A stretch of DNA of 64,000 nt from an uncultured Clostridia bacterium (GTDB lineage: Bacteria; Bacillota; Clostridia; Christensenellales; UBA1242): assembly GCA_944345545.1 (NCBI GenBank), contig CALVMK010000062.1, positions 4,538 through 68,537 on the forward strand, read 5' to 3'. Shown here one piece after another: positions 14,301 through 53,812 of this stretch; positions within the stretch are counted from its first letter, which is position 1, and each line of letters starts with the position of its first letter. The notes under the pieces are model-generated. The model ran no database searches. It saw nothing but the letters and a program-made list of their open reading frames with translations, and was not told the DNA's origin. The position numbers and the translations under genes are program-made.

Positions 14301-17300
14301 AAACAAAACTATAATCAACAATATCACCATCTGAATTTGTTTCTTCAACTTTTAAAATTCTTGAAGAAATTGCAATATTATTTGCACTAACAAGTTCAGG
14401 CCCTTGAACTGTCATATACCAAACGCCATCGTAAGTATTTCCTTCAACTGAACTATTTGAAAATGCAAAACCATAAAAGCTATCTTTAACGTCAGGGTCT
14501 ATTATTCTGTTTACAGATGTGTTATATAAAGATTCCATATCTGTGCCAGCATATTCATCATCTAAAGAAGTATCTGAATTATAATAATAACAATTTTCAA
14601 CTAAACCATAGTTTTGCAAATCTAGATTGACATCAACGCCTAAGAAATTCATTTGAGTGCTGTTTGAATTTTCAATTCTAGAAGCCGAGTAACATCTTCT
14701 AACAATACCGTCAGAAGTGTTTATATAAACAAAGCCTGCACTTAATCTTCCGCTTTCTTTATCACCTAATGTTGTCAACATTATGTTACTGTAAGAATCT
14801 TCAACAATTCCTTCATTTTGATAAACAAAACCTGCACTAACACTTGCCGTTTGAATTCCAGCTCCTGTTGCATGAATTTCATAACTATTTGCATACACAC
14901 CTTTAGCATAACTTAGCCTTATTTCACCAAGGTTATTTATAACAAATCCTGCAGTAGAAGTGTCAGAGCCACTTGATGTTTGATTAACAATTGTTCCATT
15001 CATAAAGAAGCTAGAAGCTATAATTCCTGTGTTTTCATAAACAAACCCAGCAATATTTCCCTGTGCAACAATGTTAAATACAGTTGGAATAATAGATGTG
15101 CTATTAGCAACTTCTAAGCTTAAACCACCCACTCTGCTGTTAGTAATAGAACCATTATTATTGTTTACAACAAACCCTGCCACTCGACTTTGAACTTTAT
15201 CTATATCAATATTGCTATAACCATAGTTTACAACAATGCCTTGAGTTGAAGGTTCTGGTCTTCCCGTTCCATTTACGTAATAAGACACAACTTCACAGTT
15301 TGTAATAATACCGTTATTGGTAATTGCAAAACCAGCAATGTCTACAGATGTAACATTGGTCATACTTAAATTGATGTTTCCACCAAAATAAGTGTTTACC
15401 CTAATATTTTTTAAAGTTGTATCCTGACTTACTTCATCAAACAACGCTAATTTTATTGAAGATTGCTCGTTAGAAACATTGTAGCTTAAAATATGAATTG
15501 TTTTATTGTTTCCATCAAAGCTTCTAATCATTGAAGTACTAATAGGAGTGTAGTCTAAAAGATATATATCTTCTGTTAAAATATAATCTAAAGCTTCTTC
15601 GTTGTTAACAATGTTTAAAAATTTTTCAGCTGAATCAATGATAACTGGTTTATCTTCATTTGTTTCCAAAACTACATTGATAGTAAAGTAATATTCAAGA
15701 TATGTTTTTGTTGGCTCACTTGTGCCATTAGGAATTTGAATTGGAATTCTTAGCAACAAATTTACGCTACCAGTTGTAGCTTGAAGTCCACGTACATAAA
15801 GATTAGAACCGTCATAGCTAAAAGCACAGTAATTGTTAGAAGATATTTGCCCACTTTGTCTATTAAATACTTTGCTAAGTTCAATTCTATCAGGGTTGTA
15901 AGTATCAGCATAGTAAAGATTATCAATGAAATTTGCAACAATAACTCCATTTGAACTATCTAAGTCAAAATCGTATGGCAATTCATCATAAAAACCATTT
16001 ACAATGTAACTATTTTTTTGGTCGTAAGTTTCTTCTGGGTTAGAATTATAATATTTATATTGATTAAATAAATTTAAACTATTAGGAAGATAACTATCAA
16101 CATCAAAGTCAAATTCTAATTTTTGAGTTGTTCCTACATACAAAGTTAAAACATCTTTATTGTACGCATCAGTTTTTAATTGAGTACCTTCAGGATTAAT
16201 CACAAAATCTGTGATTGCCACATAAACAACATCTTCAGCCGTTTCAACAACTCCGTTAATAACTCTTCTTGTAGTTGCTGTTACAATTATGTAATTATCT
16301 CCATTTTTTGGAGTTAAATCTGTGCTTGCATATAGTGTTGTTGTGTAATTTTTTAAACCAGTATTTTCATCAACAGTGTAAGTTAGTGGGTCATAACTTA
16401 CAGTTCCGCTTTCAACATTCTCTATACCTAAAGCATCAATAGTTTGGTCAACATTAACACTTATTGTTACCTCTCCAGAACCTCCTCTTGCAATAATAGC
16501 TTGCTTATCACCATTAACATTTAAGTCTGGCTTTGAAACATGCTGAACAGACAACATAAACTTATTTGTTTTTAAAGCTTCACCATTTTCATTATAAGCA
16601 GTGATAGAAAGCTCATAAATTGTATCGGCGTCAACATCTGAAGGAATGAAAGTTCTCAAATATAACGAACCAATATCTTGAGAAAGATTAGGTTTAAATA
16701 TTCTTATACCATTTGTAATGGTTTCATAACCAAAAGTTTTTCTTACAAATTTAGTTCCATCAACTTTTTCCATTAACCCAAACTTAACTTGATAAGAAGA
16801 ACCTAATATAGTGTTTGATGTTACTTCAATATAGCTATAATTAGAGTATGTAGGATAAAGTTCTACATTTAATAGCCCTTCTTTACCAGGAGCAAGTAAG
16901 GTTTTTGGAATAGTATCATAAACATAATGCATTCTATCAGAACCCTGATAGTCTTCCCAAATAGTAGAATTTAACAAATAATGAGAAGTGTTTATGTAAG
17001 ATAATTGTTGAGTTTCTACAGTAAGATTAAAAGTTGTAGAAACTTTAGTACTGTCAGCATATAATGAAATCTCAAATAATTGACCATCATAATTTAATGA
17101 TTTTAACGAATCATCAAGAATTCCAAATGAAACTTCATAAATTTGTTTAAAATATTTTGCATCTTGAGAATAGATGTCTTCCACAATTTCAGTCATTTCT
17201 TTATTTTTGAAAGCAACTACACCAACATTTTCAATTCTTATGCTTACAAAACCATTTGAAAAAATTCTATAATCATCATAAATATCTATACTTTCAACAC

Positions 17301-20300
17301 CAAAATAACCTATAACTTCTTCTTGAGTAAATGTTCCATCTTCATTATGTTTGGTGATTGTGGTAGTAATTCCATTGTAATTAGAAAAACCATTTTCTTT
17401 TAAAGCATCGCTATTTAAAAAGCTAGCCATTAAATCATCACATTGGTTGCCATTTTCATCTACGTTTTTATCAGTATAAATAACAACTTGAACTGTTTGA
17501 GCAAAAGAATCTACTGGCTCTATTGAAAGTTCATTTGTTTCAGCTTCGATTTTATCTGCTCCATTGTAAAGTTTAACATTAAAAGATTTTACATAAGTTT
17601 CAGCTATTGCATTGTTATATATTTCGTCTAAACCGTTTACATATAATTTTAAGCTTACCTTTATGTTATCATAAACATAATCTTGGATTTTAGCGGTAAC
17701 TATATTATGTACACCAATTTTGGTTCCATCAATTTCCAACCCAACAGTGCTTGGTTCTCCATTAATATCAGTTATAACACTAAGAATCTCTAAATCGTTT
17801 TGTTTTAAATTTATTGCTCTATTTATTGCAATTTTTGATGTTGAAATGGAAGAAGAAACAGAGTCAGAATCTCCGTGTTTTATAGATATAGTAGAATCTA
17901 CACCAAGTTCCCTACCAAAGTAATCAAGTTTAAAATCTTGAATTTTATAAATTATAGTTGCATTATACTCTTTTTTTAATGTGTAATCATATTTTGAAAA
18001 GACTGTAAATGTAAAAGTTCCTGTTACAACATCATTAACAGTTAAATATTCAGAGCCTGTAAACAAAGGAGCATTGTTGCTAACACTTATTCTAATAGAA
18101 GATGTATTGTTTAAACCAAAAAGTGTTTTTAAACTAATAGTATTCCAACTAGCAACAACAGCATTTTCCATATCTGTTAACGACATGCCTTCTGGTTCAT
18201 AATAGAAGAATATTACATAATTTTCATTGTCTTCAGTTTTAAAGGCTAAAGATAAATCAGTGTTTTTGATATCAAATTCACTTATAGAATCAAGTTCTTT
18301 TTCCTGCATGATTGCATTAAAATAAGGATATCTATTATTAGTTAAAGAATCAAAATTCCAAAGTTTATCAGACCCAAAAGAAATGTTTTTGTAAGCATTT
18401 CCATTATCTGGGTAAGTAGGAGGATTATCTATTTCAAGACTATTTGCAATAATTCTATATTCACCACTTTCGCCAAACAAGTATGCGTTTTGCACGTAAG
18501 AAATCAAGGTTATGTTATCTTCATTTCCTGCAAAATTGGAGTTTTTAACACTTGCAAAACATGCATTAACTTCACCGTTAGAAATTTCGCCAACTAAAGA
18601 GCCTAAACTAGAACCTTCATCTAAACCAATTAACACGCTTTCATATGCATTATTATCACCATTAACTTTTACGTAAGAATATGCAAAACTAAATGATAAT
18701 GTTCCATCAGTCATTTTTCCAACTAGTCCACCAACTACATTACCTTTAATGTTAGAAAAAGCATTTTCATATCTATAAAATTCCACCTTACAATAACTTA
18801 TATTGCCAGAATTTTCTCCTGCAATTCCACCAACATAAGATAAGGCGTTTTCATTCGTAACAATACCGTAAAAATTACAATTTGTAATTGTTCCAATATT
18901 AACACTAGCAATTCCACCACTTACATTTTTATCTAATCCATCAATGTTTAAGTTTAAAATATCATTATCTGTAAGAGCTGTAACTGTGCTAGCTTTATAT
19001 TCATCTCCGTCTACCCATGTATCAACAACAACATTGTTAATGGTTCCATTATTAATTAAAGCAACAAAAGCTCCTTTTGCTTCACCAACAAGTGTTACAT
19101 CTTCAACAATAGCACTATTTCCAAGCGTAGTGAACAAAGAAGTTTCACTTAAAATTATAGTGTGAGTAACATCATCTCCTATTTTTTTAGCAAAGAATCC
19201 ACCATTAAATGTAACCGTTTTACCATTATAAGTGTCTAGTGGAGATGTTAAAGGTTGTTGCAAATCTTTTGTTAAAGTGTAATACAAGTCTGGATACTCT
19301 TGTATATAAGCTTTTATTGTATCAATATCTTCTTCTTCATAAGAAGTTTCTCTTGACCTTCCATCTGCAACTTTAACTGGAATATATCTTGCAACATCTT
19401 CTTCACCAACAACATATCTTCCATTAATATAGCAATCTTCTGGTGCAATTCTAATATAACCCGTTCCACCAATAATTTGGTTTTTAGATAGGGTTATTTT
19501 ACCCGTATTATCAACAGAAATAAGTGTTGGAGAAGAATTACTATTAGGTAAAAATTCATAAATTAAATTCGTGTTTAAAGGGTTATTAGATGTGTCCGCA
19601 TGGGCTAAAACATAAGTAATTTGGTCTTGTCTTTCATCTTCGCCTTCAAATTTTTCGATTTCTAAATAAACACCATTTTCTTCAGTAACATTATCTAGTA
19701 TAATATTTTCAACCTTATTTGCTCTACGTATTGTTAAATTGAATGCCCTATTTATCTCTTGTCCAAATTCAACTGCTTTAACTAAAATGTTGTCAGTAAT
19801 CATATTTGCAATAGCAAGTCCACCAGCCACAAGTTGATAGGTTGATTCAGCATTTATTGAAACAGAGTTTGTTTCAGTTATAGTAATTGTATAAAGAGTC
19901 TTTCTATCTAATTCATTAGCTTCTTCAACTAACACAACATCAATGTCCGTAGTTCCAGAAACTTCATTTCCTTGAATAAACCAAGAAAGTTTGTTATAAG
20001 TTGGTTGATTTTGAACATTTCCATTATTAAAAATAACATTAAAATTAACAAAAGTTGAATTGATGTTAGCATCACCAACACTATCTTTTGAATAAAGGGT
20101 TGCACTTGACCTAGAAAGCAACATTGAAGTAATTGGCACATAACTTTCTATGATAAAATATTTTGTAATAGTATATTCAACCTTTTTACCATTTTGCAAA
20201 GTAAAACCTGTTATTTTTGCCCTTACAAGAACCTTTCCTTCACCAGATGCAATAATTTGATTATAATTATTAAGATATAAAGAATTTACTATAGAAGAAG

Positions 20301-22326
20301 TTGATTGATATTCGTTATCTGCAGGAAGTCCGCTTAAAAAAGCGTTTTGATATCCTTCGGCATAAGCATTTTCAAAATCTGCATTTTGTCCTAAGATAAT
20401 GTCATTGCTAAAATCGTATTTAACATTAACATTAGTGTTAGCATTGATTTTTAAATTGACATTTTCACCCCTTTTTATTGAAGCAATAAAAACATCTTGC
20501 CCATCAATAGTGGCTGTTAGCACTCTGCCAATGGAAGAAGTTTCTTGTGGAGTTGGAACAGCCAATGTAACATTATCATCTAAAGCTTTAAAAACTTCTA
20601 CTTTAGCTTTTAAAAGTTGTCCATTTGAAAATCTTATTCTAAGTTCACCAATCTCCTCAAAGTTTTCCTTAGATGTTATTTCAATATAATAAAGATTATA
20701 TGTTTCCCCATCTTTATCGGTCGTGCCCTTATAAATAGGTTGAGCAGATGCTATTTCAAAAGCATTACCAACAGATGTTAAAACGACATCACCAATAACA
20801 GAATTTGTTGGGGAAACAAGAAACTCTATTTGCTTGGTCATAGATTCATTTGAAGTTAAATAAAAAACACTATTTTCACCTTCTTTAACAGCATTATTAA
20901 ATTCAACTTTTTTAGCCCCAACTTTAGGGTTTAAGCTTAAATCTATTGATACATTTTTATTGGCATCAGAAACTACTTTAATATTTCCAGCAACATTTAC
21001 ATTGCCATTTGCAACTACATAAATGGTTGCTCCGCTTGTGGTTTTAATGACATTTTTATCACCTTCTGTTGTATAATTTAATATATTTCCATTAAAATCA
21101 TAAAATATAAAGTTACCAAGTGTCCCTGTTCCTAATTCTATTGTAAGCCCCCTATCACCTTCTGGAACTGTTGATGGGCCTATAACAAAAGATAATTCAA
21201 GACCTCTTACATTTGCATAAAAATCATAAACATCAAAACTTGTTTTATTTTCTACAAGTTCACCCTCTTGATATGTTCTTATAACTGAAACAGTGTCATA
21301 TGCAGATATGATAACTTTTTCAGTTGTAATTTTTTGATCATACTGCGAATGTTTAATTTCAAATACAAGTTCATCAGACCCTACATCACCTTTTGGACTT
21401 ATATAAAAATTATAAACTGAGCCAACAATAGAAGATGATACAACTTCAGCTATATCCCCAAATTTAAACTTAGGTGTAATTATATAATCTGCACTATTAG
21501 CAAGAATTGTAATTAAAAGACTATTTCTACTTTGTAGATTGTTTGCAATTTTAAATTCATAATAACCATTATTGTTTTCTTCTGGAGTAATTGGCTCTTG
21601 ATTTTCACCATTATTGTAATAATAATATTGTGAATACGTTATAGGATTTAAAACATTCAAAAGAATTCTTGTTGTTATTTGAGAATTAGATTTGCTTGTT
21701 GCGATAATTTCAATAGTATTATCAACAGAAACATAATCTTCCGTTACAACTAAAATGTTGTTGTTAATGCTTGCACCAAAAATATTTTCAGCAAGAGAAA
21801 ACTCTACATCTTTTTCCGTTGTATCTATTGGAGAAAAAGAAATCAATTCATTGGTTAAGTTTTTTGGAGTGTTTATTGTAACAAAAGCAAGCGATAAATC
21901 AGAAGATTGTTGAATAGAAGAAACTTTTTTTATTGAACTAACATAAAAACTTGAACTTTTTTGACCATCTAAAGCCGTTACAACAACTTGAACATTATTA
22001 ACTATTCCAGTAGCTGTAACTGTTATTTCACTGATGTTTCCACTAACAAACTTTGTTTTAGCAACAACCTTTTCACTAGTAGTGCTTGCTAAAACTTGTT
22101 TGCTAACATTGTCGGGAGCACCTTCAACAGAAACAGCAAAAGTGCTACTTGCAGTGTTATCTTCCCCTAATTCTAATACAAGTTGATTTTGAACTAAAGA
22201 ATCAGGTAAAACAACTTTAACATTTTTATAAGGGTCGCCACATGCAGTAAGCATAAAAGAAACGCCTACGATTAACATAAGCATCAATGCTATAGGAAAG
22301 GTTAAAGTTTTCTTTAAAAGTTTCAT
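5350..22326 (-). CDS. Giant surface lipoprotein, 5658 aa: Ig-like modules alternating with at least five blocks of GLUG-like beta-helix repeats (putative adhesin or envelope protein)
   Basis: Uninterrupted 16977-nt ORF in the supplied track. RBS is ACGGAGGAAGA-ATG. The N-terminus MKLLKKTLTFPIALMLMLIVGVSFMLTAC|GDPYK is a lipoprotein signal. Motifs of the form (A/V)GG(I/L)(V/A)G.N.G.I..(C/S) recur many times, for example YVGGIAGENSGNISYC, VVGGLVGKMTDGTL, AGFVYENTGIIASS and AAGGIVGENYGYLF. Block starts resemble G(T/S)..NP(F/I).I. Confidence 0.9.
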   Translation of the reverse strand: MKLLKKTLTFPIALMLMLIVGVSFMLTACGDPYKNVKVVLPDSLVQNQLVLELGEDNTASSTFAVSVEGAPDNVSKQVLASTTSEKVVAKTKFVSGNISEITVTATGIVNNVQVVVTALDGQKSSSFYVSSIKKVSSIQQSSDLSLAFVTINTPKNLTNELISFSPIDTTEKDVEFSLAENIFGASINNNILVVTEDYVSVDNTIEIIATSKSNSQITTRILLNVLNPITYSQYYYYNNGENQEPITPEENNNGYYEFKIANNLQSRNSLLITILANSADYIITPKFKFGDIAEVVSSSIVGSVYNFYISPKGDVGSDELVFEIKHSQYDQKITTEKVIISAYDTVSVIRTYQEGELVENKTSFDVYDFYANVRGLELSFVIGPSTVPEGDRGLTIELGTGTLGNFIFYDFNGNILNYTTEGDKNVIKTTSGATIYVVANGNVNVAGNIKVVSDANKNVSIDLSLNPKVGAKKVEFNNAVKEGENSVFYLTSNESMTKQIEFLVSPTNSVIGDVVLTSVGNAFEIASAQPIYKGTTDKDGETYNLYYIEITSKENFEEIGELRIRFSNGQLLKAKVEVFKALDDNVTLAVPTPQETSSIGRVLTATIDGQDVFIASIKRGENVNLKINANTNVNVKYDFSNDIILGQNADFENAYAEGYQNAFLSGLPADNEYQSTSSIVNSLYLNNYNQIIASGEGKVLVRAKITGFTLQNGKKVEYTITKYFIIESYVPITSMLLSRSSATLYSKDSVGDANINSTFVNFNVIFNNGNVQNQPTYNKLSWFIQGNEVSGTTDIDVVLVEEANELDRKTLYTITITETNSVSINAESTYQLVAGGLAIANMITDNILVKAVEFGQEINRAFNLTIRRANKVENIILDNVTEENGVYLEIEKFEGEDERQDQITYVLAHADTSNNPLNTNLIYEFLPNSNSSPTLISVDNTGKITLSKNQIIGGTGYIRIAPEDCYINGRYVVGEEDVARYIPVKVADGRSRETSYEEEDIDTIKAYIQEYPDLYYTLTKDLQQPLTSPLDTYNGKTVTFNGGFFAKKIGDDVTHTIILSETSLFTTLGNSAIVEDVTLVGEAKGAFVALINNGTINNVVVDTWVDGDEYKASTVTALTDNDILNLNIDGLDKNVSGGIASVNIGTITNCNFYGIVTNENALSYVGGIAGENSGNISYCKVEFYRYENAFSNIKGNVVGGLVGKMTDGTLSFSFAYSYVKVNGDNNAYESVLIGLDEGSSLGSLVGEISNGEVNACFASVKNSNFAGNEDNITLISYVQNAYLFGESGEYRIIANSLEIDNPPTYPDNGNAYKNISFGSDKLWNFDSLTNNRYPYFNAIMQEKELDSISEFDIKNTDLSLAFKTEDNENYVIFFYYEPEGMSLTDMENAVVASWNTISLKTLFGLNNTSSIRISVSNNAPLFTGSEYLTVNDVVTGTFTFTVFSKYDYTLKKEYNATIIYKIQDFKLDYFGRELGVDSTISIKHGDSDSVSSSISTSKIAINRAINLKQNDLEILSVITDINGEPSTVGLEIDGTKIGVHNIVTAKIQDYVYDNIKVSLKLYVNGLDEIYNNAIAETYVKSFNVKLYNGADKIEAETNELSIEPVDSFAQTVQVVIYTDKNVDENGNQCDDLMASFLNSDALKENGFSNYNGITTTITKHNEDGTFTQEEVIGYFGVESIDIYDDYRIFSNGFVSIRIENVGVVAFKNKEMTEIVEDIYSQDAKYFKQIYEVSFGILDDSLKSLNYDGQLFEISLYADSTKVSTTFNLTVETQQLSYINTSHYLLNSTIWEDYQGSDRMHYVYDTIPKTLLAPGKEGLLNVELYPTYSNYSYIEVTSNTILGSSYQVKFGLMEKVDGTKFVRKTFGYETITNGIRIFKPNLSQDIGSLYLRTFIPSDVDADTIYELSITAYNENGEALKTNKFMLSVQHVSKPDLNVNGDKQAIIARGGSGEVTISVNVDQTIDALGIENVESGTVSYDPLTYTVDENTGLKNYTTTLYASTDLTPKNGDNYIIVTATTRRVINGVVETAEDVVYVAITDFVINPEGTQLKTDAYNKDVLTLYVGTTQKLEFDFDVDSYLPNSLNLFNQYKYYNSNPEETYDQKNSYIVNGFYDELPYDFDLDSSNGVIVANFIDNLYYADTYNPDRIELSKVFNRQSGQISSNNYCAFSYDGSNLYVRGLQATTGSVNLLLRIPIQIPNGTSEPTKTYLEYYFTINVVLETNEDKPVIIDSAEKFLNIVNNEEALDYILTEDIYLLDYTPISTSMIRSFDGNNKTIHILSYNVSNEQSSIKLALFDEVSQDTTLKNIRVNTYFGGNINLSMTNVTSVDIAGFAITNNGIITNCEVVSYYVNGTGRPEPSTQGIVVNYGYSNIDIDKVQSRVAGFVVNNNNGSITNSRVGGLSLEVANSTSIIPTVFNIVAQGNIAGFVYENTGIIASSFFMNGTIVNQTSSGSDTSTAGFVINNLGEIRLSYAKGVYANSYEIHATGAGIQTASVSAGFVYQNEGIVEDSYSNIMLTTLGDKESGRLSAGFVYINTSDGIVRRCYSASRIENSNSTQMNFLGVDVNLDLQNYGLVENCYYYNSDTSLDDEYAGTDMESLYNTSVNRIIDPDVKDSFYGFAFSNSSVEGNTYDGVWYMTVQGPELVSANNIAISSRILKVEETNSDGDIVDYSFVYADGYRYGSSKNPIIIRNADEFNQVFGGDTANVSSSVAFYYDLVQNKVFGNYRIVDNIDLSSLLSDETGLTLRSTEMSLVPTYSNNGEVNGLGLIDGNSFTVSGIELVSTLGGANTSYGLFKELDNGAVIMNLNLEIKGVNATGVNYVGALSGTIKDSKIININISNGLASENAVIYGYNLAGGVAGRIIGNSYLSNISVENLTVVAGNDVGSSSQQFYNRSIRNNISYAGGIAGVIDIYTNINDYKFSTILSDPNAVGLKASGNTSVYGATVGGIVGFLGPQTMLQDALYEISSSQGEYSQKLVAYKFAAGGIVGENYGYLFMVRTEHSSNDQLEIENNYSNYYNNSSAEINRGNLKLFEYENSTSYKPKFIGGIVGEFVTGKLDKAYSKLNVTSTLAEYAGGIIGAITDRDNSSFGGLNDYGYNQTYSLTFSELYSTGDLLANTGAGGIFGLIEDGVWKQIELEKINAINYLSVPEKQGTLSGEYTIKDGKKYLNNVYDIYFMPEGSNALNILINQTNYDVNALEKILTNNDEFYFNKSLSSAVISENPNEELNGEIMISTDVQKISELINSSLVDYANEMNKIFRNAGWDQEYWTTETEDSVPHLFPHLTFKVEPSVIYIREASDLVYLQQYKNKTFIIVGNDVDGCIIKVGDYLATTKQGFTVDGFSGLLRGRTDTEEYGFDFTVYNSTEKITAPLFNGTLTGAQFSNFVITGVGKGVSADYDYRPNISSILVNTATGTTFNNITVRDCSISYTIPSTESNGYNIGLLCAVAEKSSFSDINFDNTTNAGNEVEVKIPSDTDLLNKLPNKMEISVGVLTGYLGTASSVSKISNIKFNDSFINIYLQPLNNTNKDLSLNVGHIAGASGSIDLDLINYENINDSEFNLKTNILCGENYYINTLNAGGLIGKVVGSVDANLAQKYSGQDGLTFNYSLYSLLTDNEDDAKEVKAKTGSVGGLFGSLSGSTSYQFLVDELNSNLPFRYIVNNNIKLDIYDNNDNSDEIFYFGGALGNVTDKLLINNVKTDGEVEITSNTVSYVGGVVGYVKQSFNANYLWSSLSLDFNCNAEKDNVFAGIVGYVGYSVNGEESSGVISTIQNTLNESYFDINAKKIIYGGIVGAVPTQKTTLQSNILNMRITNSVSGGEIIVGSNKEIAPNSVRVGGIVGSLSGLGSVSDSDSSNVKIVYNLTYTDLQFKQKPSSVSYVGGLVGLGARGAILHTNYSLASIIFPYSRDENSHIGALMGAVSNATSTDGNSEFQNYYSNQLALMTATDTEVNSLVVKNIGYEQTLSNISNNQNFQSTINLISSVHYGSKLNPFHIEGNYIKANNNNVAEYNTTSKNWAIIENKEVAESVYNLYLGAYGEDPFSTAMPERKYFVIDSIDSVDNAVYNIQNITLNNGAIFGDGIKISIETEIDSSNNYISNNFINILDENSFVTGVQVAVDIRTYDDSQLTHYYVEEIAGENNSTSKIATAYYGGLVGINKGIVYACNTINSQNRSDDAKVQTTMGTAGGISVNNVPDTYGTENVSVNNLIVGGLVAINETTGYIADSFSMVDIVTDSSTVENVYLAGLVGKNKGQIDSCYSTGFVQNNANFTNGYTYSFSYDENENSVSNSYSIAKAKVKTDAVTKGEIGVFGKGAGESNYYDINSTEISSNNVKELTVDDMSTYTFNGTTFNTGILNDNLSTIKFTQNPLINYGYPYFGGTGFMAEGNVSNYMIVETGDGTKENPFQIQSAGKWQQLTKSGGNGKIVTIQSDYYGTSLYNWDAHFELIYNIDFESAEVETINPVGTLNSTNQYLDEKNNYFSGTFNGNDNIISNVEIVGFDNTKNNIYQNSIASGLFGYVGPRLETANPAEIKNVILENVTVENFANSSKYKLNSSAGGIAGIAKDAIITNCYVINSSITGFNNAGGIVGYAESGSVEISKCANISSSVKSIGNRNTLEETSVDDNNIIVYVDITAGGILGFVNENIDVNIAVNINECYNTGEVVAGSEVADNGSFSDPSMADSAYAGGILGAGFTNRSEDYSNLDQETIDKIVNGEINSIITIKDCYNKGNIRANANVPDPENNRYFNLGKLDDDGNFIEDENGDVQQFNDAYKLVAKTYLMHSKYENSMAQGDHNYQSIIYAVYIRMVMRDAYASGIANNDADIISCYNIGEITNNEDDIVETIKKETNGVKNEDIKGRIDITYSLLAENYVAGRSGEFNMYTTQEVGKEEGDIPEGSVFRRDWSVVNGKVTRDGKNAGADLQIELPTLTSKVVEITSVSSGMSALAGAGTAITTKLISKGIGKLVTAVVPVAGVIAEAAILILFWDNPKSDTCLLVPNADGNINIIVGENSVGIYSIQTSELTHDNLIMNTSYYNNTLVGEGENKKGLTYDDDVEMFTGSYVAPIGYNSDILNSFSVANTCKTDGDNYNTGKTQSKENVMYDDFNGINDECANLTIDELKNMATYGETTIDYTNIIDDGDQYIYYTDRDEITINSAEYQVNTLTYKDNQYLYFSEEYSVESEPSKQDYFVVQTDNGKQILNTKDYSIFDLETTLDENYKEYYTGAGSLINKNITNYQRIYYQSGSITTSGNTATIKNPYVIIYEDVNDNVGRIVRLTEEGGTLTFNLKSNETSTEYINDYKNISITGGEPEEALKGFAGYLVKGVLGENSFTTDENGNVTGIAQNGYDYSFDKTKDYQTVCTIGFNDITIGQAYIINDNPLYLGEISNKITFEEKSDEFYSYEINGETKQKNIITYSYEIDGTPVIENPYYIYDSQNNKVQISLQPVFEGDLANVNLIYRSYPKDGGICYVIGYLRQRTISKEFISEEQQTIINDAIDNGSAQNGGSFKAQIWDFADSGAWTIDSSGIINDGLPYLKNLPIDSYSYVSYDNSNNTYNVYISQDDSKAKTLQIGETLTLFKDTENVDYKIIDGVHYIGYVQSGEETIYIASYKVFDLGIVSFTRYWTWEDYYSITVDANDYIYTEKFNGVLFKK

Positions 22327-39851: not shown

Positions 39852-41636
39852 ATGTATACAGTCAAACAGATTAAAGACACATTTTTAAATTATTTTGAAA
39901 AAAATGGACACAAAATAATAGATGGAGCATCAATAGTTCCAGAAAACGACCCCACGCTTTTATTTATAAACGCTGGAATGGCACCAATGAAAAAAGTTTT
40001 TACTGGTGAAGAAGCCCCACAAGCAAAAAGAATGTGTAACATTCAAAATTGCATTAGAACTATAGATATTGACAGCATAGGCGATAGACATCACCTATCT
40101 AGTTTTTATATGCTAGGCTCATGGAGTATTGGCGATTATTTTAAAGAAGGTGCAATAAGTTACGCATTTGAATTGTTAACAAAAGGTTTTAGCATACCAA
40201 AAGAAAAATTGTACGTAACAGTTTTTTCTGGCGATGAAAAAAGAAAAATACCAGCGGACACAGAAAGCATTGAATTTTGGAAAAAAGTTGGAATAGCTGA
40301 TAGTCATATAATTAGATGTGGTTTTGAAGATAATTTTTGGCGTATTGGTGGCGACCATGACGCAGGTCCTTGTGGTCCTTGCACAGAAATGTTTTACGAT
40401 ACAGGTGCAAAGCACGGAGCAAGTTTAGAAGAAAGCGGAATATTTGATGATAAAAACAGATACATTGAAATTTGGAATGCTGGTGTTTTTATGGAATATT
40501 ATCAAGATGAAAATGGTAACTATTCTAAATTAAACATGAAAAGCGTCGACACTGGTTCTGGACTAGAAAGAATGTTAATGACATTAAACGGCTTAGAAAG
40601 TGCCTATGACACAGAGATATTTTTACCGATAATAGAATATCTAAAAAATAATTGTTCATCACCTATTATAGAAAGTTTAAGAATAATTGCAGACCATGTT
40701 AGAACAAGCATTTTAATTTTAAATGCAAAAGTAGAGCCTAGCAATGTTAAACGTGGATATGTTTTAAGAAGATTAATAAGACGTGCCATTAGACACATGA
40801 GAACAATTGGATTAAGCGACGATAAAATTCCTGAACTTTTAGATTTAACAATGCAAAATATGAAAAACATAGATTTAGAACCAAAATGGAATTTTTCAAA
40901 GCAAGAAATCATTGAGAAATTTATGGCTGAATTTGCTAAATTTTCAAAAACACTTGAGCAAGGATTAAAAGCCTTCAACGAATATGTAAAAGATGAAAAA
41001 AATATTGTTAACAACAAGTTAGATAGTAAAATCGCATTTAAACTATTTGATACCTACGGTTTTCCACTTGAAATTACAAAAGAACTTGCAAAAGAAAAGA
41101 ATTTAATAGTTGATGAAAAAGAATTTAATGAACTTTTTGAAAAACATAGAGAAATTTCTAAAACAGAAGGAACATTTAAAAGCGGTTTAGCTGACACTAG
41201 CGAAGAAACTATCAAACTTCACACTGCTACTCACCTTCTTCAAGCAGGTTTAAGACATGTTCTTGGCAATTATGTTAGTCAAAAAGGAAGCAATATAACT
41301 CCTGAAAGGCTTAGATTTGACTTCAATTTTGAAAGAAAAATGACTGCTGATGAATTGAAAGCAGTAGAAGATTTTGTTAACGAAGCAATAAGTAAAGAAA
41401 TTCCTGTAATACGTGAAGAAATGAAGTTAGAAGATGCAAAGAAAACTGGAGCAATCGGGCTCTTTACTGATAAATATGGTGATAACGTTTCTGTTTACAC
41501 AATTGGCAACATTAGTAAAGAACTTTGCAGTGGTCCTCATGTTTCTAACACCAAAGAGTTGGGACACTTTAAAATTTTAAAAGAAGAAAGTTCTTCAAGC
41601 GGTATTAGAAGAATAAAGGCAGTAGTAGAAAAATAA
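39852..41636 (+). CDS. alaS: Alanine--tRNA ligase, unusually short form (594 aa; catalytic and editing cores, no C-Ala domain)
   Basis: The N-terminus MYTVKQIKDTFLNYFEKNGHKII..DPTLLFINAGM and WRIGG..GPCGPCTEMFYD are class-II AlaRS catalytic motifs. HTATHLL and CSGPHV are the editing-domain zinc motifs. The ORF ends 25 aa after CSGPHV. Confidence 0.85.
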   Translation: MYTVKQIKDTFLNYFEKNGHKIIDGASIVPENDPTLLFINAGMAPMKKVFTGEEAPQAKRMCNIQNCIRTIDIDSIGDRHHLSSFYMLGSWSIGDYFKEGAISYAFELLTKGFSIPKEKLYVTVFSGDEKRKIPADTESIEFWKKVGIADSHIIRCGFEDNFWRIGGDHDAGPCGPCTEMFYDTGAKHGASLEESGIFDDKNRYIEIWNAGVFMEYYQDENGNYSKLNMKSVDTGSGLERMLMTLNGLESAYDTEIFLPIIEYLKNNCSSPIIESLRIIADHVRTSILILNAKVEPSNVKRGYVLRRLIRRAIRHMRTIGLSDDKIPELLDLTMQNMKNIDLEPKWNFSKQEIIEKFMAEFAKFSKTLEQGLKAFNEYVKDEKNIVNNKLDSKIAFKLFDTYGFPLEITKELAKEKNLIVDEKEFNELFEKHREISKTEGTFKSGLADTSEETIKLHTATHLLQAGLRHVLGNYVSQKGSNITPERLRFDFNFERKMTADELKAVEDFVNEAISKEIPVIREEMKLEDAKKTGAIGLFTDKYGDNVSVYTIGNISKELCSGPHVSNTKELGHFKILKEESSSSGIRRIKAVVEK

Positions 41637-41694
41637 ATTTTTATAATTTTAAAAATTGTATGTATTACTAAAAAGCTTTGATAGGAACGGGAAA

Positions 41695-41775
41695 GCATCG
41701 GAAGTGCTCGCTTTTAGCGAGCAGGCACCAAAATGGTGCAAAAAATTTCGCAAAGCGAAATTTTGCTTCCGATGC
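41695..41775 (+). repeat. GC-rich four-way-junction (cloverleaf-shaped) element, copy A
   Basis: Perfect pairing throughout. Outer stem: GCATCGGAAG/CTTCCGATGC. H1: GCTCGC-tttta-GCGAGC. H2: GCACCA-aaa-TGGTGC. H3: AAAATTTCGC-aaa-GCGAAATTTT. Confidence 0.75.
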
Positions 41776-41847
41776 CAAGCTCGCACAAACTTCAAATTAT
41801 TAAAAAAAATCATCACGAACAAACGATATAGCAAAAAAGGGGAAAAA

Positions 41848-44250
41848 ATGGATTTTAAAAATGTTGAAAAAAAATGGCAAAAAATATGGGAACAAGAACA
41901 TAGATATCATGCAAAAGACTTTGATAGTAAACCAAAATATTATATTCTAGTTGAATTTCCATATCCAAGTGGAGCTGGACTTCATGTTGGGCACACGCCA
42001 AATCAAATAGCTATGGATATTTTAGCAAGAAAAAAGAGAGCAGAAGGCTATAATGTTCTCTACCCTATCGGTTGGGACGCTTTTGGACTGCCAACAGAAA
42101 ATTATGCAATCAAAACAGGCATACACCCAAAAGAAGTAACAAGAAAGAATGTTGAACATTTTAAAGAACAAATAAAGAGTTTGGGCATTTCATTTGATTG
42201 GGATAGAGAAATCAACACCACAGATGAAGAATATTATAAATGGACTCAATGGATATTTTTACAGTTTTTTAAAAAAGGCTTAGCTTATAAAGCAGAAGCA
42301 AATATAAATTGGTGTCCTAAATGTAAAATTGGTCTTTCAAACGAAGAAAGCGAAGGCGGAATTTGCGAAAGATGTGGAACTCCAACTTTGCAAAAGCCAA
42401 AAAGCCAATGGATGTTAAAAATGTCTGAATATGCAGAAAAACTTTTACAAGGTTTAGATGAAACTAATTATTGGGAAAACATAAAAGCAATGCAAAGAAA
42501 ATGGATTGGTAAAAGCGAAGGGACAACAATGCATTGTAAATTAGAAAGTGGAGAAAGTTTTGATATTTTCACAACATGTATAGAAACAGTGTTTGGTATT
42601 ACCTACTTTGTTTTAGCTCCTGAAAATCCATTAGTAGACAAATTAAAAGACAAAATTGAAAATTGGGATGAAGTTTTAGCTTATAAAGAAAAGTCAGCAA
42701 AAAAATCTGAGTTTGAAAGAACAGAACTTGTTAAAGAAAAGTCTGGTTGTGAGTTAAAAGGAATAAAAGCAATCAATCCAATAAATGGAAAAAAAGTTCC
42801 AGTTTATATAGGAGATTATGTTTTAGCCAATTATGGTTCTGGTGCAGTTATGGCAGTGCCAGCGCACGACCAAAGAGATTATGATTTTGCAAAACTTATG
42901 AATTTGCCTATGATAGAAGTAATAGAAGGCGGAAACATTAAAGAATGTGCTTTTGAAAAAGCTGATTATTTGGGAAAAGGTTGCAAACTCATAAATTCTG
43001 CAGGGTTCTCAGGAATGACAGTTGAAGAAGCAAAAGCTGCACTAAACAAATATTTAGAAGAAAATGGCTTAGGAAAAAAAGAGTGCACTTATAGAATGAG
43101 AGATTGGGTTTTCAGACGTCAAAGATATTGGGGCGAACCTGTTCCACTTGTTTATTGTGAGCATTGTGGTTGGGTTCCAGTTCCTGAAAATGAACTTCCT
43201 GTTAAACTCCCTAATGTTGATAAATATGTCCCAACAGATGATGGAGAAAGTCCACTTTCAAGAATAACAGAATGGGTAAACACCACCTGCCCTAAATGCG
43301 GACAACCTGCAAAACGTGAAACAGATGTAATGCCCAACTGGGCAGGGTCATCTTGGTATTGGCTAAGATATATGGACCCACACAATGATAAAGCTTTTGC
43401 AGATTTTGAAAAAATGAAATATTGGGGAAAAGTAGATATTTATAATGGCGGTGGCGAACACGTTACACGACACCTTTTATACGCAAGATTTTGGCATAAA
43501 TTTTTATATGATAATGGTTTAGTTCCTTATAGCGAACCATTTGATAGAAGAATACAACAAGGAATTATATTAGCAAGCGACGGTTCTAAGATGAGCAAAT
43601 CTGCTGGCAACACCGTTGACCCAATGGAATACGTAGAAAAATACGGTGCCGACGTATCAAGACTTGGTCAAATGTTCATGGGTGATTACACAGAGATGAA
43701 ACCATGGAGCGATGCAACAATGAAACCATGTGAAAGATTATTAAATAGAATAGTTGCACTAAAGGACAAAGTAACAAAAGGTGAAATTAGAGATGAAAAC
43801 AAGTTCATATGTGCAAGTAGCATAAAGAAAGTAAATGAAGATGTTGAAAACTTAAAATTCAACACAGCCATTTCACAAATTATGATATTTACAAGTGCAC
43901 TTGAAAAACAAGAAAAGATAAATTCAGAAGAATATAAAGTTTTACTTAAAATATTGAATCCATTTGCCCCACACATTACGGAAGAATTATGGGAAGAATG
44001 TAAGTTTTCTCCAAAAATTGAAGAGACAGCATGGCCGAGTTACAATGAAAAAGACTTAATTCAAAATGAAGTAGAAATAGCAGTTCAACAAAATAGTAAG
44101 ATTATAGGAAGAATGAATATATCCCCCACAGCAGACCAAAGCGAGATAGAAGAAAAAGCAAAAAAAGAATTTGCACAAAAATTTGAAAACAAAGAAATAA
44201 TAAAAGTTGTTTTAATTCCATCAAGGTTAATAAATTTCATTGTAAAATAA
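41848..44250 (+). CDS. leuS: Leucine--tRNA ligase
   Basis: True start is MDFKNVEKKWQKIWEQ at ATG 41848, behind AAAAGGGGAAAAA. HIGH motif is GLHVGH and KMSKS is SKMSKS. The track's longer ORF from 41656 only reads through the structured leader. Confidence 0.95.
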   Translation: MDFKNVEKKWQKIWEQEHRYHAKDFDSKPKYYILVEFPYPSGAGLHVGHTPNQIAMDILARKKRAEGYNVLYPIGWDAFGLPTENYAIKTGIHPKEVTRKNVEHFKEQIKSLGISFDWDREINTTDEEYYKWTQWIFLQFFKKGLAYKAEANINWCPKCKIGLSNEESEGGICERCGTPTLQKPKSQWMLKMSEYAEKLLQGLDETNYWENIKAMQRKWIGKSEGTTMHCKLESGESFDIFTTCIETVFGITYFVLAPENPLVDKLKDKIENWDEVLAYKEKSAKKSEFERTELVKEKSGCELKGIKAINPINGKKVPVYIGDYVLANYGSGAVMAVPAHDQRDYDFAKLMNLPMIEVIEGGNIKECAFEKADYLGKGCKLINSAGFSGMTVEEAKAALNKYLEENGLGKKECTYRMRDWVFRRQRYWGEPVPLVYCEHCGWVPVPENELPVKLPNVDKYVPTDDGESPLSRITEWVNTTCPKCGQPAKRETDVMPNWAGSSWYWLRYMDPHNDKAFADFEKMKYWGKVDIYNGGGEHVTRHLLYARFWHKFLYDNGLVPYSEPFDRRIQQGIILASDGSKMSKSAGNTVDPMEYVEKYGADVSRLGQMFMGDYTEMKPWSDATMKPCERLLNRIVALKDKVTKGEIRDENKFICASSIKKVNEDVENLKFNTAISQIMIFTSALEKQEKINSEEYKVLLKILNPFAPHITEELWEECKFSPKIEETAWPSYNEKDLIQNEVEIAVQQNSKIIGRMNISPTADQSEIEEKAKKEFAQKFENKEIIKVVLIPSRLINFIVK

Positions 44251-47058: not shown

Positions 47059-47140
47059 GCGGGCGTGGCGGAATGGCAGACGCGCTTGTTTAAGGGGCAA
47101 GTGGGAAACCGTATGGGTTCAAGTCCCGTCGCCCGCACCA
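47059..47140 (+). tRNA. tRNA-Leu (type II, long variable arm); the anticodon reads AAG in my fold; CCA is encoded
   Basis: Acceptor: GCGGGCG/CGCCCGC. D arm: GCG-GAATGGCAGA-CGC. Anticodon stem: CTTGT/GCAAG. Anticodon loop: TT-AAG-GG (47090-47096). Variable arm is 11 nt. T arm: ATGGG-TTCAAGT-CCCGT. Discriminator is A, followed by CCA. Very similar overall to Bacillus tRNA-Leu. Confidence 0.85.
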
Positions 47141-47143
47141 AAT

Positions 47144-47184
47144 AAGAGCAATTCGAACCATTTGGTTTGGGTTGTTCTTTTTTT
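47144..47184 (+). terminator. Terminator after tRNA-Leu
   Basis: Long imperfect hairpin AAGAGCAATTCGAACC-attt-GGTTTGGGTTGTTCTT followed by a T-run. Confidence 0.6.
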
Positions 47185-48502: not shown

Positions 48503-49156
48503 TTATAGATTTTCATTTTCTTTATTTTTACTAATAGCATTTAACTCACACAATGTTTTTGAATTATCAAATGTATAAAATTGATTAGATAATCTTTCTA
48601 GTTCTTTTGATAGCTTTAAACTTCTTTTAAATCTAGAAATAATTTTATCTTCTGGCACACCATGACCACCCTGTTGCACCCTTTTGTATACCCTTTCAAT
48701 ATTAATTTTAGGGTTGATTGTGTAAACAAAAATTGATGTTATTTTATATCCTTTTTCTTTTGCTAGTTTAATTAATTCAAGTTTGCTTGGGTGTGACAAA
48801 ACAGTTTCATAACAAAACGATTTTCCAGACTTAATAAAAGTTTCAACCAAATTCATTGTATAATACATAGATTTTAAATTTTTTTCATTATCGCCTTTAA
48901 TATTAGCAAACATTGTTTTGCAAAACAAATCTGCATTTATGTAAGAACATTTTATAATATTTTCTTTAAATAAGTTTGCAATCAATGTGGTTTTCCCACT
49001 TCCGTTAGGCCCTGCAATAACAAATAAATCTAAGTTATTCAATTTTTCCTTATTTTCATTTTTAATAATAATATCAAGTGCAGAAGCGTTATTATATGCT
49101 TTAAATTTTTTAGCTATAAAATCATTAAATTCAATCATTATCTCTCCTTTTGCCAT
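48503..49156 (-). CDS. Zeta-toxin-like / COG4185-type P-loop kinase
   Basis: Walker A motif IAGPNGSGKTTL followed by YINADLF, as in zeta/PezT-like kinases. The more likely start is the ATG at 49138 (MIEFNDF), behind AAGGAG. Confidence 0.5.
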   Translation of the reverse strand: MAKGEIMIEFNDFIAKKFKAYNNASALDIIIKNENKEKLNNLDLFVIAGPNGSGKTTLIANLFKENIIKCSYINADLFCKTMFANIKGDNEKNLKSMYYTMNLVETFIKSGKSFCYETVLSHPSKLELIKLAKEKGYKITSIFVYTINPKINIERVYKRVQQGGHGVPEDKIISRFKRSLKLSKELERLSNQFYTFDNSKTLCELNAISKNKENENL

Positions 49157-52139: not shown

Positions 52140-52238
52140 AATTATATATTGTTTTTAAGTTAAAAGAATTATTTTAAAATAATTAATTTTAAAACTAAAT
52201 TATTTTTTTAATGAAAATTAATTAAAAAAATAAATATA

Positions 52239-52312
52239 CGGAAAGTGCGGGCTAAAGCCCGCTAGCCACTCTTTGAGTGGCTTAAATTTTGCGTTGCAAA
52301 ATTTACTTTCCG
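52239..52312 (+). repeat. GC-rich four-way-junction (cloverleaf-shaped) element, copy B
   Basis: Outer stem: CGGAAAGT/ACTTTCCG. H1: GCGGGC-taaa-GCCCGC. H2: AGCCACTC-ttt-GAGTGGCT. H3: AAATTTTGC-gtt-GCAAAATTT. The arm order on the + strand is the same as in copy A. The element abuts the gpmI stop codon (52313-52315). Confidence 0.75.
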
Positions 52313-53812
52313 TTAGTGTTTAATCATACTGCACGTCATAGAATCAGGTTTTTTAATGTTAAGCAACTCTAAAACTGTAGGAGCAACATTAGCAAGAATA
52401 CCATTTTCTATAAGCTTAACCTTTTTAAATTTTTCACTTGCCAATATAAAAGGAACAGGATTAGAACTATGTGCGGTTACAGGTTTGCCGTTTTTATCTA
52501 ATAAGCATTCAGCATTTCCATGGTCAGCAGTAATAATACAATCTCCGCCAGCTAAGATTGTTGCCATGCAAACCGCATATGCACATTTGTCCACAACTTG
52601 AATTGCTCTTTTTGTTGCTTCCATGTTTGCAGTATGCCCAATCATGTCAGGGTTAGAGAAATTAATTAAAATAAAATCATATTTATTTAAACTAATTGCA
52701 TTCATAGCATCTTCTGCAATCTCAAACGCTCTCATTTCTGGAAATTCACTAAAATCTTTAACATTTTTTGTTTCAATCAGTTTTCTATCTTCATTTTCAA
52801 AAGGTTCTTCCCTTCCTCCATTAAAAAAGAAAGTAACATGTGCATATTTTGTGGTCTCAGCAATATGATATTGCTTTAAACCCGCTTTAGAAATAATTTC
52901 ACTTAACCCATTTCTAACCACTTCTGCAGGATAAGCAACATGAACATTTTTTAATTCGTCTGAGTAATTAGTCATTGTAACAAAATATAAGTTGCTTAAT
53001 TTTTTAGTAGGAAATTTTGAAAAATTATCTTCTGTTATCGCTTCAGTTAATTCACGAGGTCTATCCGTTCTAAAATTGAAGAAAATCACACTATCTCCAG
53101 AATTTATAATTTTAGGTTTGCCAATTATAGTTGGTTCAATAAATTCATCATAAATTCCATCATCATAACTTTCTTTTATAGCTTCAGTTGCGCTTTGATA
53201 AAATCTTTCTGCTTGTCCTAAGCATATTGCATCATAGGCTTTCATAACTCTATCATATCTCTTTTCCCTATCCATAGCATAAAACCTGCCCATGATTGTA
53301 GCGATTTCAGCATTTTTATTTTTCATAAAATCTTCAAGCTGGGAAACATAGTTTAAAGCACTATCTTTTAAAGTATCTCTGCCATCTGTAAAAACATGAA
53401 CATATATTTTTTCAACACCTGAGTTATATGCCATGTCAATTAGAGTTTTTAAATGACTTATATGAGAATGAACTCCACCATCAGAAACCAAACCCATTAA
53501 ATGTAAAACTTTTGAATGTTTAAAAGCTCGTTTAAACTCTTCATTGTTTTGAAATTTACCAGATTTTATATCTTCATTTATCCTGCTTAAATCTTGAAGT
53601 ACAATTCTTCCAGCCCCCAAGTTTAAATGTCCCACTTCACTATTACCCATTTGACCATCACTCAAGCCCACAGCTTCTCCACTAGCTTTTATTAAAGTGT
53701 TAGGATATTTTAACTTTAATTTATCAATATTAGGTGTTCCTTGTTGCTTTATAGCGTTACCATATGTTTCATTGCTTTCACCAAACCCATCTAAAATAAT
53801 TAATGTAACCAT
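52313..53812 (-). CDS. gpmI: 2,3-bisphosphoglycerate-independent phosphoglycerate mutase
   Basis: MVTLIILDGFG..GNSEVGHLNLGAGR..ADHGNAE are canonical iPGM motifs. 499 aa. Confidence 0.95.
   Translation of the reverse strand: MVTLIILDGFGESNETYGNAIKQQGTPNIDKLKLKYPNTLIKASGEAVGLSDGQMGNSEVGHLNLGAGRIVLQDLSRINEDIKSGKFQNNEEFKRAFKHSKVLHLMGLVSDGGVHSHISHLKTLIDMAYNSGVEKIYVHVFTDGRDTLKDSALNYVSQLEDFMKNKNAEIATIMGRFYAMDREKRYDRVMKAYDAICLGQAERFYQSATEAIKESYDDGIYDEFIEPTIIGKPKIINSGDSVIFFNFRTDRPRELTEAITEDNFSKFPTKKLSNLYFVTMTNYSDELKNVHVAYPAEVVRNGLSEIISKAGLKQYHIAETTKYAHVTFFFNGGREEPFENEDRKLIETKNVKDFSEFPEMRAFEIAEDAMNAISLNKYDFILINFSNPDMIGHTANMEATKRAIQVVDKCAYAVCMATILAGGDCIITADHGNAECLLDKNGKPVTAHSSNPVPFILASEKFKKVKLIENGILANVAPTVLELLNIKKPDSMTCSMIKH

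Follow-up and report, generated by a model that had tools for sequence, protein, structure and literature searches.

Which kind of genetic element occupies the spacer between the alanyl- and leucyl-tRNA synthetase genes (alaS and leuS) of an uncultured gut Clostridium is the question raised by a 64,000-nucleotide stretch of its DNA (hereafter the window; GenBank assembly GCA_944345545.1, contig CALVMK010000062.1, positions 4,538 to 68,537), in which a GC-rich segment at positions 41695-41775 folds into a four-way junction. A preliminary description, made from the letters alone, had proposed that this structure is selected and that it represents either a REP/BIME-like repeat or a small structured RNA. 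The comparison of related loci establishes that the segment belongs to a small family of intergenic elements that are four-armed, very stable and restricted to a lineage of uncultured gut Clostridia; the family is previously undescribed, no account of the element having been found in the literature. The family is made of modules of 73-96 nucleotides (nt), each with a closing stem and three hairpins joined by linkers of 0-2 nt into a perfect four-way junction. The functional interpretation that is favored here, with a probability of roughly 0.4, is that these elements act as dispersed, REP/ERIC-like structural modules of mRNA, serving as decay barriers or processing sites and possibly having a protein partner.

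Architecture of the two copies in the window

The element of the alaS-leuS spacer (copy 1; window 41695-41775) is composed of a mismatch-free closing stem of 10-11 base pairs (bp) and three hairpins (H1, H2 and H3), with hairpin loops of 3-5 nt and junction linkers of 0-2 nt. On the + strand, the 5' arm of the outer stem (41695-41705; GCATCGGAAG(T)) contains a core, CGGAAG, that is kept family-wide, and its positions 41695-41704 pair with 41766-41775 of the 3' arm (41765-41775; (G)CTTCCGATGC), which follows H3 after a linker of 0-1 nt. The enclosed hairpins, on the same strand, are the GC-rich H1 (41706-41722; GCTCGC-TTTTA-GCGAGC), whose sequence differs among orthologues; H2 (41725-41739; GCACCA-AAA-TGGTGC), the fastest-evolving arm, which already differs between strains L102 and L103; and the AT-rich H3 (41742-41764; AAAATTTCGC-AAA-GCGAAATTTT), whose stem is identical in all eight distinct alaS-leuS element sequences. 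The four-way junction is both the minimum-energy and the centroid structure given by RNAfold for either strand. On the + strand it reaches -46.2 kcal/mol, compared with a shuffle mean of -19.6 (z = -9.0; 0 of 200 dinucleotide shuffles as stable), and on the - strand -44.2 kcal/mol (z = -8.3). Two short words lie just around copy 1: the upstream flank (window 41686-41696) carries AACGGGAAAGC, which resembles the word of the 5' outer arm, and the downstream flank (window 41777-41785) carries AAGCTCGCA, a repeat of the 5' arm of H1. Both are kept in strains L102-L104, and they may be relics of a duplication or provide an alternative pairing.

The preliminary description had also reported that the same architecture recurs, with different stem sequences, at 52239-52312. 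This recurrence is borne out, since copy 2 (W2), whose full stem covers 52238-52313, folds with no mismatch into the same architecture (-39.4 kcal/mol, z = -7.6, RNAfold). Read on the + strand, it is formed by the 5' arm of the outer stem (52238-52246; ACGGAAAGT), H1 (52247-52262; GCGGGC-TAAA-GCCCGC), H2 (52264-52282; AGCCACTC-TTT-GAGTGGCT), H3 (52284-52304; AAATTTTGC-GTT-GCAAAATTT) and the 3' arm (52305-52313; ACTTTCCGT), the last base of which is the third base of the stop codon of gpmI. Because this arm overlaps the gpmI stop and gpmI lies on the - strand, a gpmI mRNA would read copy 2 in reverse order (H3'-H2'-H1') and then AUAUUUAUUUUUUU. The difference in stem sequences holds for H1 and H2, the only parts that are unrelated between the copies, and fails for the outer-stem core (CGGAA(A)G/CTT(T)CCG) and H3, which are shared; both copies follow the common + strand layout CGGAA(A)GT-H1-H2-AAATTTYGC-nnn-GCRAAATTT-(R)CTT(T)CCG. 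They also have the same chromosomal orientation, although their neighboring genes are opposed. As for copy 1, the coordinates, stems and mismatch-free four-way fold that had been described are all correct and agree with RNAfold, and its + strand is indeed not followed by a U-tract.

Such an arrangement is rare in the window. Of the 258 perfect hairpins that it contains, three lie side by side in two places only, and these are copies 1 and 2; likewise, the pattern CGGAA-N40-70-TTCCG matches the same two sites only (0.11 expected). No third copy was detected in the 64-kb window by a covariance model with all filters off. The elements have a GC content of 46-47%, compared with 29% for the window and 21-31% for the flanking spacer. 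The conserved words of the element are not over-represented outside the elements, and a reading of the element as an uptake sequence was rejected on this ground.

Conservation at orthologous loci and occurrence in other lineages

The order alaS-element-leuS is found on all contigs whose LeuS is 92-100% identical to that of the window (L081, L098-L101 and L102-L110). Between these species leuS retains 81-84% DNA identity and third codon positions only 55-65%; therefore, unconstrained sequence is near saturation, and the spacer flanks are unalignable. Among the orthologues of copy 1, the outer stem shows a single exchange of A-U for U-A, and the pair that closes the junction varies (C-G, U·G or U-A); H1 displays paired substitutions (GTTCTAGGC/GCCTAGAAC in L081, GTTTTAGGC/GCCTAAAAC in L109 and GCTCTGGGC/GCCCAGAGC in L098). 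H2 is unrecognisable across species and still forms a perfect hairpin every time. Strains of the window species, with leuS 99.2-99.6% identical, differ in the element at 2-3 positions, each of which keeps or extends a stem. In Candidatus Caccopulliclostridium gallistercoris (L098), the outer stem opens at the G of the alaS TAG codon and closes 17 nt before the leuS ATG; these 17 nt include the ribosome-binding site AAGGAG. Since this element spans from the alaS stop to near the leuS ATG, it is co-transcribed with both genes if it is transcribed at all. More generally, in L098-L108 the element begins within the alaS stop codon, and nothing resembling a promoter precedes it. The leuS ATG lies 16-17 nt past the element in the sister species and 72 nt past copy 1 in the window.

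Base pairing was evaluated on a structure-guided, N-padded alignment that is gapless after MAFFT (A2), which replaced a MAFFT alignment that is not structure-aware (A1) for pair counts. Changes on both sides occur in 31 of the 46 pairs of A2 (157 cells), and the covariation score amounts to 0.61, in comparison with 0.15 for shuffles (0 of 500 reach 0.61) and 0.03-0.09 for slid partners. Nine cells, corresponding to at least six events, contain a G·U pair, all of them on the gene-sense strand, and A·C juxtapositions are absent (0); this strand asymmetry weakly favors a constraint at the RNA level or, at least, on one strand. On the sequence comparison, the structure is selected, as the preliminary description had argued from the recurrence in the window: its stems have been kept at orthologous loci despite near-saturated silent sites, with changes on both arms of the pairs.

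The element is also present 3' of gpmI in relatives whose GpmI is 80-81% identical (L111 and L112/113), with paired changes in both. In L112/113 it overlaps the gpmI TAA stop, and in L111 it is located 115 nt downstream of the gene. A canonical bidirectional terminator about 45 nt beyond the element of L112 places this element within the gpmI 3' untranslated region (UTR), where it is read as H3'-H2'-H1'; L111 has a separate terminator downstream too. The H1 of the L111 orthologue (L111:4453-4536, - strand) reads GCGGAAAGC-AAA-GCTTTCCGC, an internal copy of the outer-stem word.

A scan of metagenome contigs for H3 followed by the 3' arm retrieved four more true copies from three further lineages (L086, L091 and L094/L096), all with the same architecture and signature as the window copies. 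In L086 (L086:1747-2040, - strand), the element is found between a gene for a SCIFF-type six-Cys peptide (...GGCGECQTSCQSACKTSCGV...), which has its own terminator, and its radical-SAM maturase gene, with the ribosome-binding site 18 nt further on. The copies of L094/L096 come just past the promoter-like sequence TTGAAT-19-TATAAA and precede, by about 20 nt, the ribosome-binding site of an open reading frame (ORF) of 307 amino acids (aa), and the L091 copy lies in antisense order 10 nt past a stop codon, followed by GTATTTTT. Relative to the mRNA, three loci are sense and two antisense. Every copy that has the GC apex of H3, which L111 and L112/113 lack, contains the contiguous block GCRAAATTT(R)CTT(T)CCG, and the covariance model favors one strand (54-96 bits versus 25-47 bits). 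No copy was found in about 0.9 Mb of other Clostridia loci and no further copy in 220 kb of element-bearing loci, and detectors of perfect hairpins and RNAfold junctions, together with the covariance model (R1), recovered the copies listed here and no others from about 1.1 Mb of relatives' loci. Conservation in relatives, which the preliminary description had left to be checked, is thus provided by orthologues at both loci and by three more lineages.

Hairpins with the same words as H3 and the 3' outer arm (GAAATTTYGC-nnn-GCRAAATTTC, then CTTCCG) were also observed in four JGI metagenome contigs (L088:10707-10733, L090:22-48, L095:367-393 and L097:1694-1720, all on the - strand). Their neighbors in L088, L090 and L095 are short tandem repeats, (GGTGAAT)n, (CCGTTTA)n and (CCTATT)n, in place of the other arms; in L097 the contig end cuts the region, and no tandem repeats are seen there.

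A proposed structural module embedded in messenger RNA

The reading that best fits all five genomic contexts, by functional analogy with the REP, ERIC, BOX and Correia sequences, is that of a structural module carried by mRNA. The modules would be transcribed within the neighboring mRNAs, either between cistrons, at the start of the 5' UTR or in the 3' UTR, and would be kept for their fold. The resulting stable RNA knot could block the 3'-to-5' exonucleolytic decay of the upstream cistron and, equally, the 5'-to-3' attack of RNase J-type enzymes on the downstream cistron; alternatively, the element could serve as a double-strand-specific processing site. The stems are strictly Watson-Crick and, therefore, the transcript of either strand holds the same helices. 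The mixed sense and antisense placement would fit an orientation-tolerant structural role, and the element is best seen as an mRNA-embedded module that occurs in either orientation. If the outer-stem core and H3, separated by a linker of 0-1 nt, were stacked on each other, a duplex of about 17-20 bp (CGGAA(A)GC·AAATTTYGC) would be formed in either orientation, and this duplex is a plausible candidate site for a protein or an RNase. The existence of at least five unrelated loci with a common signature, together with the presence or absence of the element locus by locus, implies a past spread by duplication or mobilisation.

A more far-reaching proposal, which we consider unlikely, is that the elements constitute a new class of compact RNA with a perfect four-way junction, whose stacked outer-stem/H3 helix would dock a dedicated protein or nuclease in a sequence-specific manner, in either transcript orientation because every stem is strictly Watson-Crick, and act as a portable gene-boundary handle setting mRNA processing or translation, or else that they are the non-autonomous partners of a structure-specific mobilising enzyme.

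Relationship to known families

No known family accounts for the element, as the preliminary description had anticipated. Like a tRNA, it measures about 80 nt and has four helices around one junction, but its loops of 3-5 nt, its stems of 6-13 bp and the lack of D-, anticodon- and T-loop signatures set it apart; neither ARAGORN, which was also used for tmRNA, nor the Rfam model RF00005 calls it, the sole tRNA of the window being a tRNA-Leu at 47059-47140. When the whole window was compared with Rfam 15, the element had no match at the gathering score, and in E-value mode the best scores of four copies were 14-30 bits, versus thresholds of 37-80, with E at least 0.06. A T-box leader of leuS was discarded because RF00230 does not match and the family also adjoins genes other than those for aminoacyl-tRNA synthetases. 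An integron attC site was discarded as well, given that there is no GTTRRRY core, no unpaired stem base and no integrase in the window, and that the neighbors are housekeeping genes. Similarly, a phage or plasmid origin finds no support: blastn of the spacer gave AT-rich chance matches in plasmids and none in phages, and viral contigs yielded 0 hits in two pattern scans. The resemblance of H2 of copy 1 to a tRNA acceptor end (CACCA/UGGUG) is not kept in orthologues, and a CodY-box-like reading of H3 was rejected by inspection because of its spacing.

The closest likenesses are found among dispersed extragenic palindromes. REP/BIME sequences (REPINs) of Enterobacteria and Pseudomonas, which are associated with RAYT transposases, are also palindromes of transcribed spacers and 3' UTRs, occur in either orientation and often lie a few nt from stop codons; the elements described here likewise take intercistronic, 5' UTR or 3' UTR positions in both orientations of their putative transcripts. 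REPs are thought to stabilise the upstream mRNA, and those near stop codons can affect translation of the upstream gene. However, a REP is a single imperfect hairpin 20-40 nt long that carries a conserved tetranucleotide, recurs in near-identical form tens to hundreds of times and has a cognate RAYT gene, whereas the element is a perfect four-way junction with two copies in 64 kb, two of its three arms are unrelated between copies and the window encodes no RAYT. Classical REP/BIME membership, one of the two options of the preliminary description, is therefore not supported, all the more since the window contains no IS200-type gene and no copy appeared in the 0.9 Mb of other Clostridia loci. 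Vertical persistence, which the element displays, has also been described for REPs (bioRxiv 10.1101/2021.07.10.451892).

The ERIC, BOX (pneumococcus) and Correia (Neisseria) sequences, which measure 100-150 nt, resemble the element in being dispersed, transcribed intergenic segments with stable folds inside mRNAs, and in showing presence/absence polymorphism between strains. Such sequences influence the stability of mRNAs or are substrates of RNase III or RNase E. In contrast to the element, they are long imperfect hairpins or modular boxes with high identity between copies, some with MITE-like ends, and none of them is a compact junction of three short perfect hairpins in a closing stem. TwoAYGGAY (RF01731), a multi-copy intergenic motif of gut metagenomes, also presents hairpins rising from a common basal stem (bioRxiv 10.64898/2026.09.22.753630); it has two hairpins with conserved AYGGAY loops, whereas the element has three, its loops are not conserved and Rfam does not match it. 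Finally, the inverted terminal repeat of adeno-associated virus consists of an outer palindrome around short, perfect, GC-rich palindromes with A/T loops of 3 nt, and it exists in two orientations. It is an architectural analogue only, because it is T-shaped, with two internal arms, forms the end of a linear single-stranded DNA genome and owes its perfection to hairpin-primed replication, while the element is chromosomal, internal and three-armed.

Weighing the explanations

A number of observations weigh against the mRNA module. Transcription of the elements, folding and action of the RNA, the role as decay barrier or processing site and the protein partner are all inferred from the DNA. As judged from the related loci, the element is dispensable, and individual loci gain or lose it between close relatives. 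It is absent from the alaS-leuS spacer of L001 (about 40 nt), whose leuS is as close to that of the window as the leuS of L098 (80.6% DNA identity); it is absent from the gpmI-yjzC spacer (46 nt) of L114/115, with a GpmI 74% identical; and it is missing upstream of the L114 orthologue (84% identical) of the 307-aa ORF. A 1-nt deletion in the 3' outer arm (GCTTCC-AAGC), found in three independent assemblies (L105:9897-9983, L106 and L107), leaves a bulge and represents a natural weakened variant; L108, with the same LeuS protein, has an intact arm. In addition, a pure stability role leaves the sequence conservation of H3 and of the outer-stem core unexplained. With regard to pairing, the 100% value of A2 is circular, since its rows were parsed from their own predicted folds, and the H1 and H2 columns are aligned by position only. 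Internal pairs are Watson-Crick in 415 of 415 cases, every G·U cell being at a helix end, where pairing is uncertain. Functional RNAs usually tolerate internal G·U pairs, and their complete absence here agrees with a DNA palindrome equally well or better; most ordinary terminators of the host genome are perfect too. Besides, templated quasipalindrome correction could yield apparent compensatory changes in one step, and compensatory changes need not prove selection on RNA, for they could have a templated origin at the DNA level.

The main rival explanation, a real if minority possibility, is a palindrome that works as DNA. It could be a non-autonomous mobile repeat of the REP/MITE kind, present in low copy number, or the target of a structure-specific DNA enzyme; it would act in the form of a folded DNA single strand or an extruded cruciform, and templated quasipalindrome correction during replication, not selection on RNA, would keep its arms perfect. 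Besides the uniformly Watson-Crick interior, this explanation would account for the almost equal folding of both strands, for the gain and loss of loci between close relatives, which is clean and module-sized (the L081 spacer minus its element is about as long as that of L001), for one signature at five loci, which means that spread must have occurred, for the same chromosomal orientation of both window copies in spite of their opposed neighbors and for the contiguous DNA block GCRAAATTT(R)CTT(T)CCG. It has difficulty with the persistence of orthologues across near-saturated silent sites, where a neutral or selfish repeat would have decayed, and with the unrelated H1 and H2 of two copies in one genome, which speak against recent transposition. 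Moreover, no transposase, RAYT, integrase or reverse transcriptase is encoded in the window or is evident beside any copy, no sign of a target-site duplication is seen, the conserved words show no enrichment elsewhere, and every mismatch-type variant is a G·T on the gene-sense strand.

The other explanations give the element a more specific task in expression. It is quite improbable that it is an operator whose outer-stem/H3 helix is bound by a specific regulator acting in trans (a protein or an RNase) to control translation or processing of the adjacent gene. This would explain the conserved sequence of H3 and of the CGGAAG core, in contrast to H1, H2 and the loops, all of which vary freely, and the fact that at each of the five loci the H3 side comes within 0-20 nt of a gene end in one lineage or more (the distance is 72 nt in window copy 1 and 115 nt in L111), with a ribosome-binding site 6-10 nt past the 3' arm in L098 and L081, 18 nt in L086 and about 20 nt in L094. 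Nevertheless, no common theme links the neighbors (leuS, gpmI, a SCIFF-type maturase gene and two unknown genes), the element is turned toward gene starts at some loci and toward stops at others, the leuS ATG is 72 nt away from the window copy, and no candidate binding protein was identified. A distant candidate is an orientation-specific RNA, either a 5' leader or a small RNA, that would be transcribed from its own promoter and, at the two antisense loci, run antisense into the 3' end of the convergent gene: a -10-like A/T hexamer is located 1-4 nt before the 5' arm in L094/96 (TTGAAT-19-TATAAA), W2, L091, L086 and L081, and the strand preference of the covariance model is clear. Yet such hexamers are expected by chance in spacers with about 80% AT (a promoter scan gave 112 versus 90 ± 11 in shuffled sequence), a start 7 nt past them would cut into the outer stem, nothing promoter-like precedes the elements of L098-L108 that start in the alaS stop, and no terminator follows the element on the sense strand. 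The discrete small RNA contemplated in the preliminary description has, for its part, no room for a promoter or a terminator in gallistercoris, in which the element fills the space from the alaS stop to 17 nt before the leuS ATG. Least probable is a branched intrinsic terminator or attenuator, in which the closing stem, with the three hairpins as a pre-folded loop, would release RNA polymerase at a U-tract. Like intrinsic terminators, the elements are GC-rich stems in an AT-rich spacer at gene ends, and both 3'-UTR copies are followed by a U-rich run (AUAUUUAUUUUUUU in W2, - strand; GUAUUUUU in L091, + strand), although such runs are common by chance at 29% GC. Unlike them, the elements are branched, and neither copy 1 nor any sense copy is followed by a U-tract, the next ribosome-binding site coming directly after. 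Furthermore, L111 and L112 have their separate canonical terminators downstream, and a terminator scan picks only H2 of copy 2, as an isolated hairpin. Terminator-like behavior would at most be confined to the two 3'-UTR copies.

Host genome and neighboring genes

The host is an uncultured gut Clostridium (Candidatus Caccopulliclostridium) with 29% GC, and the relatives of its LeuS come from uncultured gut Clostridia; the 90%-identity cluster of LeuS includes the above-mentioned Candidatus Caccopulliclostridium gallistercoris, which comes from the gut of chickens. Copy 1 has alaS (39852-41636, + strand), encoding a class II AlaRS of 594 aa, as its upstream cistron and leuS (41848-44250, + strand), encoding leucyl-tRNA synthetase, as its downstream cistron. 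On one side of copy 2 lies gpmI (52313-53812, - strand), encoding cofactor-independent phosphoglycerate mutase, with the element on its 3' side, and on the other a yjzC-like gene with its terminators. No transposase, RAYT/IS200-type gene, reverse transcriptase or integrase was found among the genes of the window, which are otherwise housekeeping genes.

Several further features of the window deserve mention. Its AlaRS, for which an exact-protein lookup returned no record, is composed of the catalytic and tRNA_SAD domains, and the same length is seen clade-wide, including the L098-L110 loci; since its 594 aa comprise these two domains only, the enzyme is devoid of the usual bacterial C-terminal region. 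A single ORF of 5658 aa occupies 5350-22326 (- strand) in what is a small AT-rich genome, and Pfam gave no match for the first 1666 aa or the last 2216 aa of this giant protein. The tRNA-Leu at 47059-47140 has the anticodon AAG and is followed by a terminator at 47144-47179; an A at position 34 of a leucine tRNA is uncommon among bacteria. A gene for a zeta-toxin/AAA_33-like kinase (48503-49156, - strand) lies amid the housekeeping genes and is conserved in L098 and L100.

Implications

Most known examples of dispersed transcribed palindromes (REP, ERIC, BOX and Correia), which are simple hairpins, come from Proteobacteria and a few pathogens. The family described here stands out by its occurrence in uncultured, genome-reduced, AT-rich gut Clostridia, by its linker-poor, mismatch-free four-way junction, by the combination of one helix of fixed sequence with two free arms, and by having long-lived orthologues and yet gains and losses locus by locus. 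If the perfection of its arms arises at the DNA level, the family would offer a natural case in which covariation due to selection on RNA can be separated from covariation due to templated mutation, a distinction that matters to every covariation-based pipeline for RNA discovery. If the elements are instead decay barriers or processing sites, these Clostridia would possess a compact and orientation-tolerant module for their mRNAs, one that could also aid the engineering of operons in Firmicutes.

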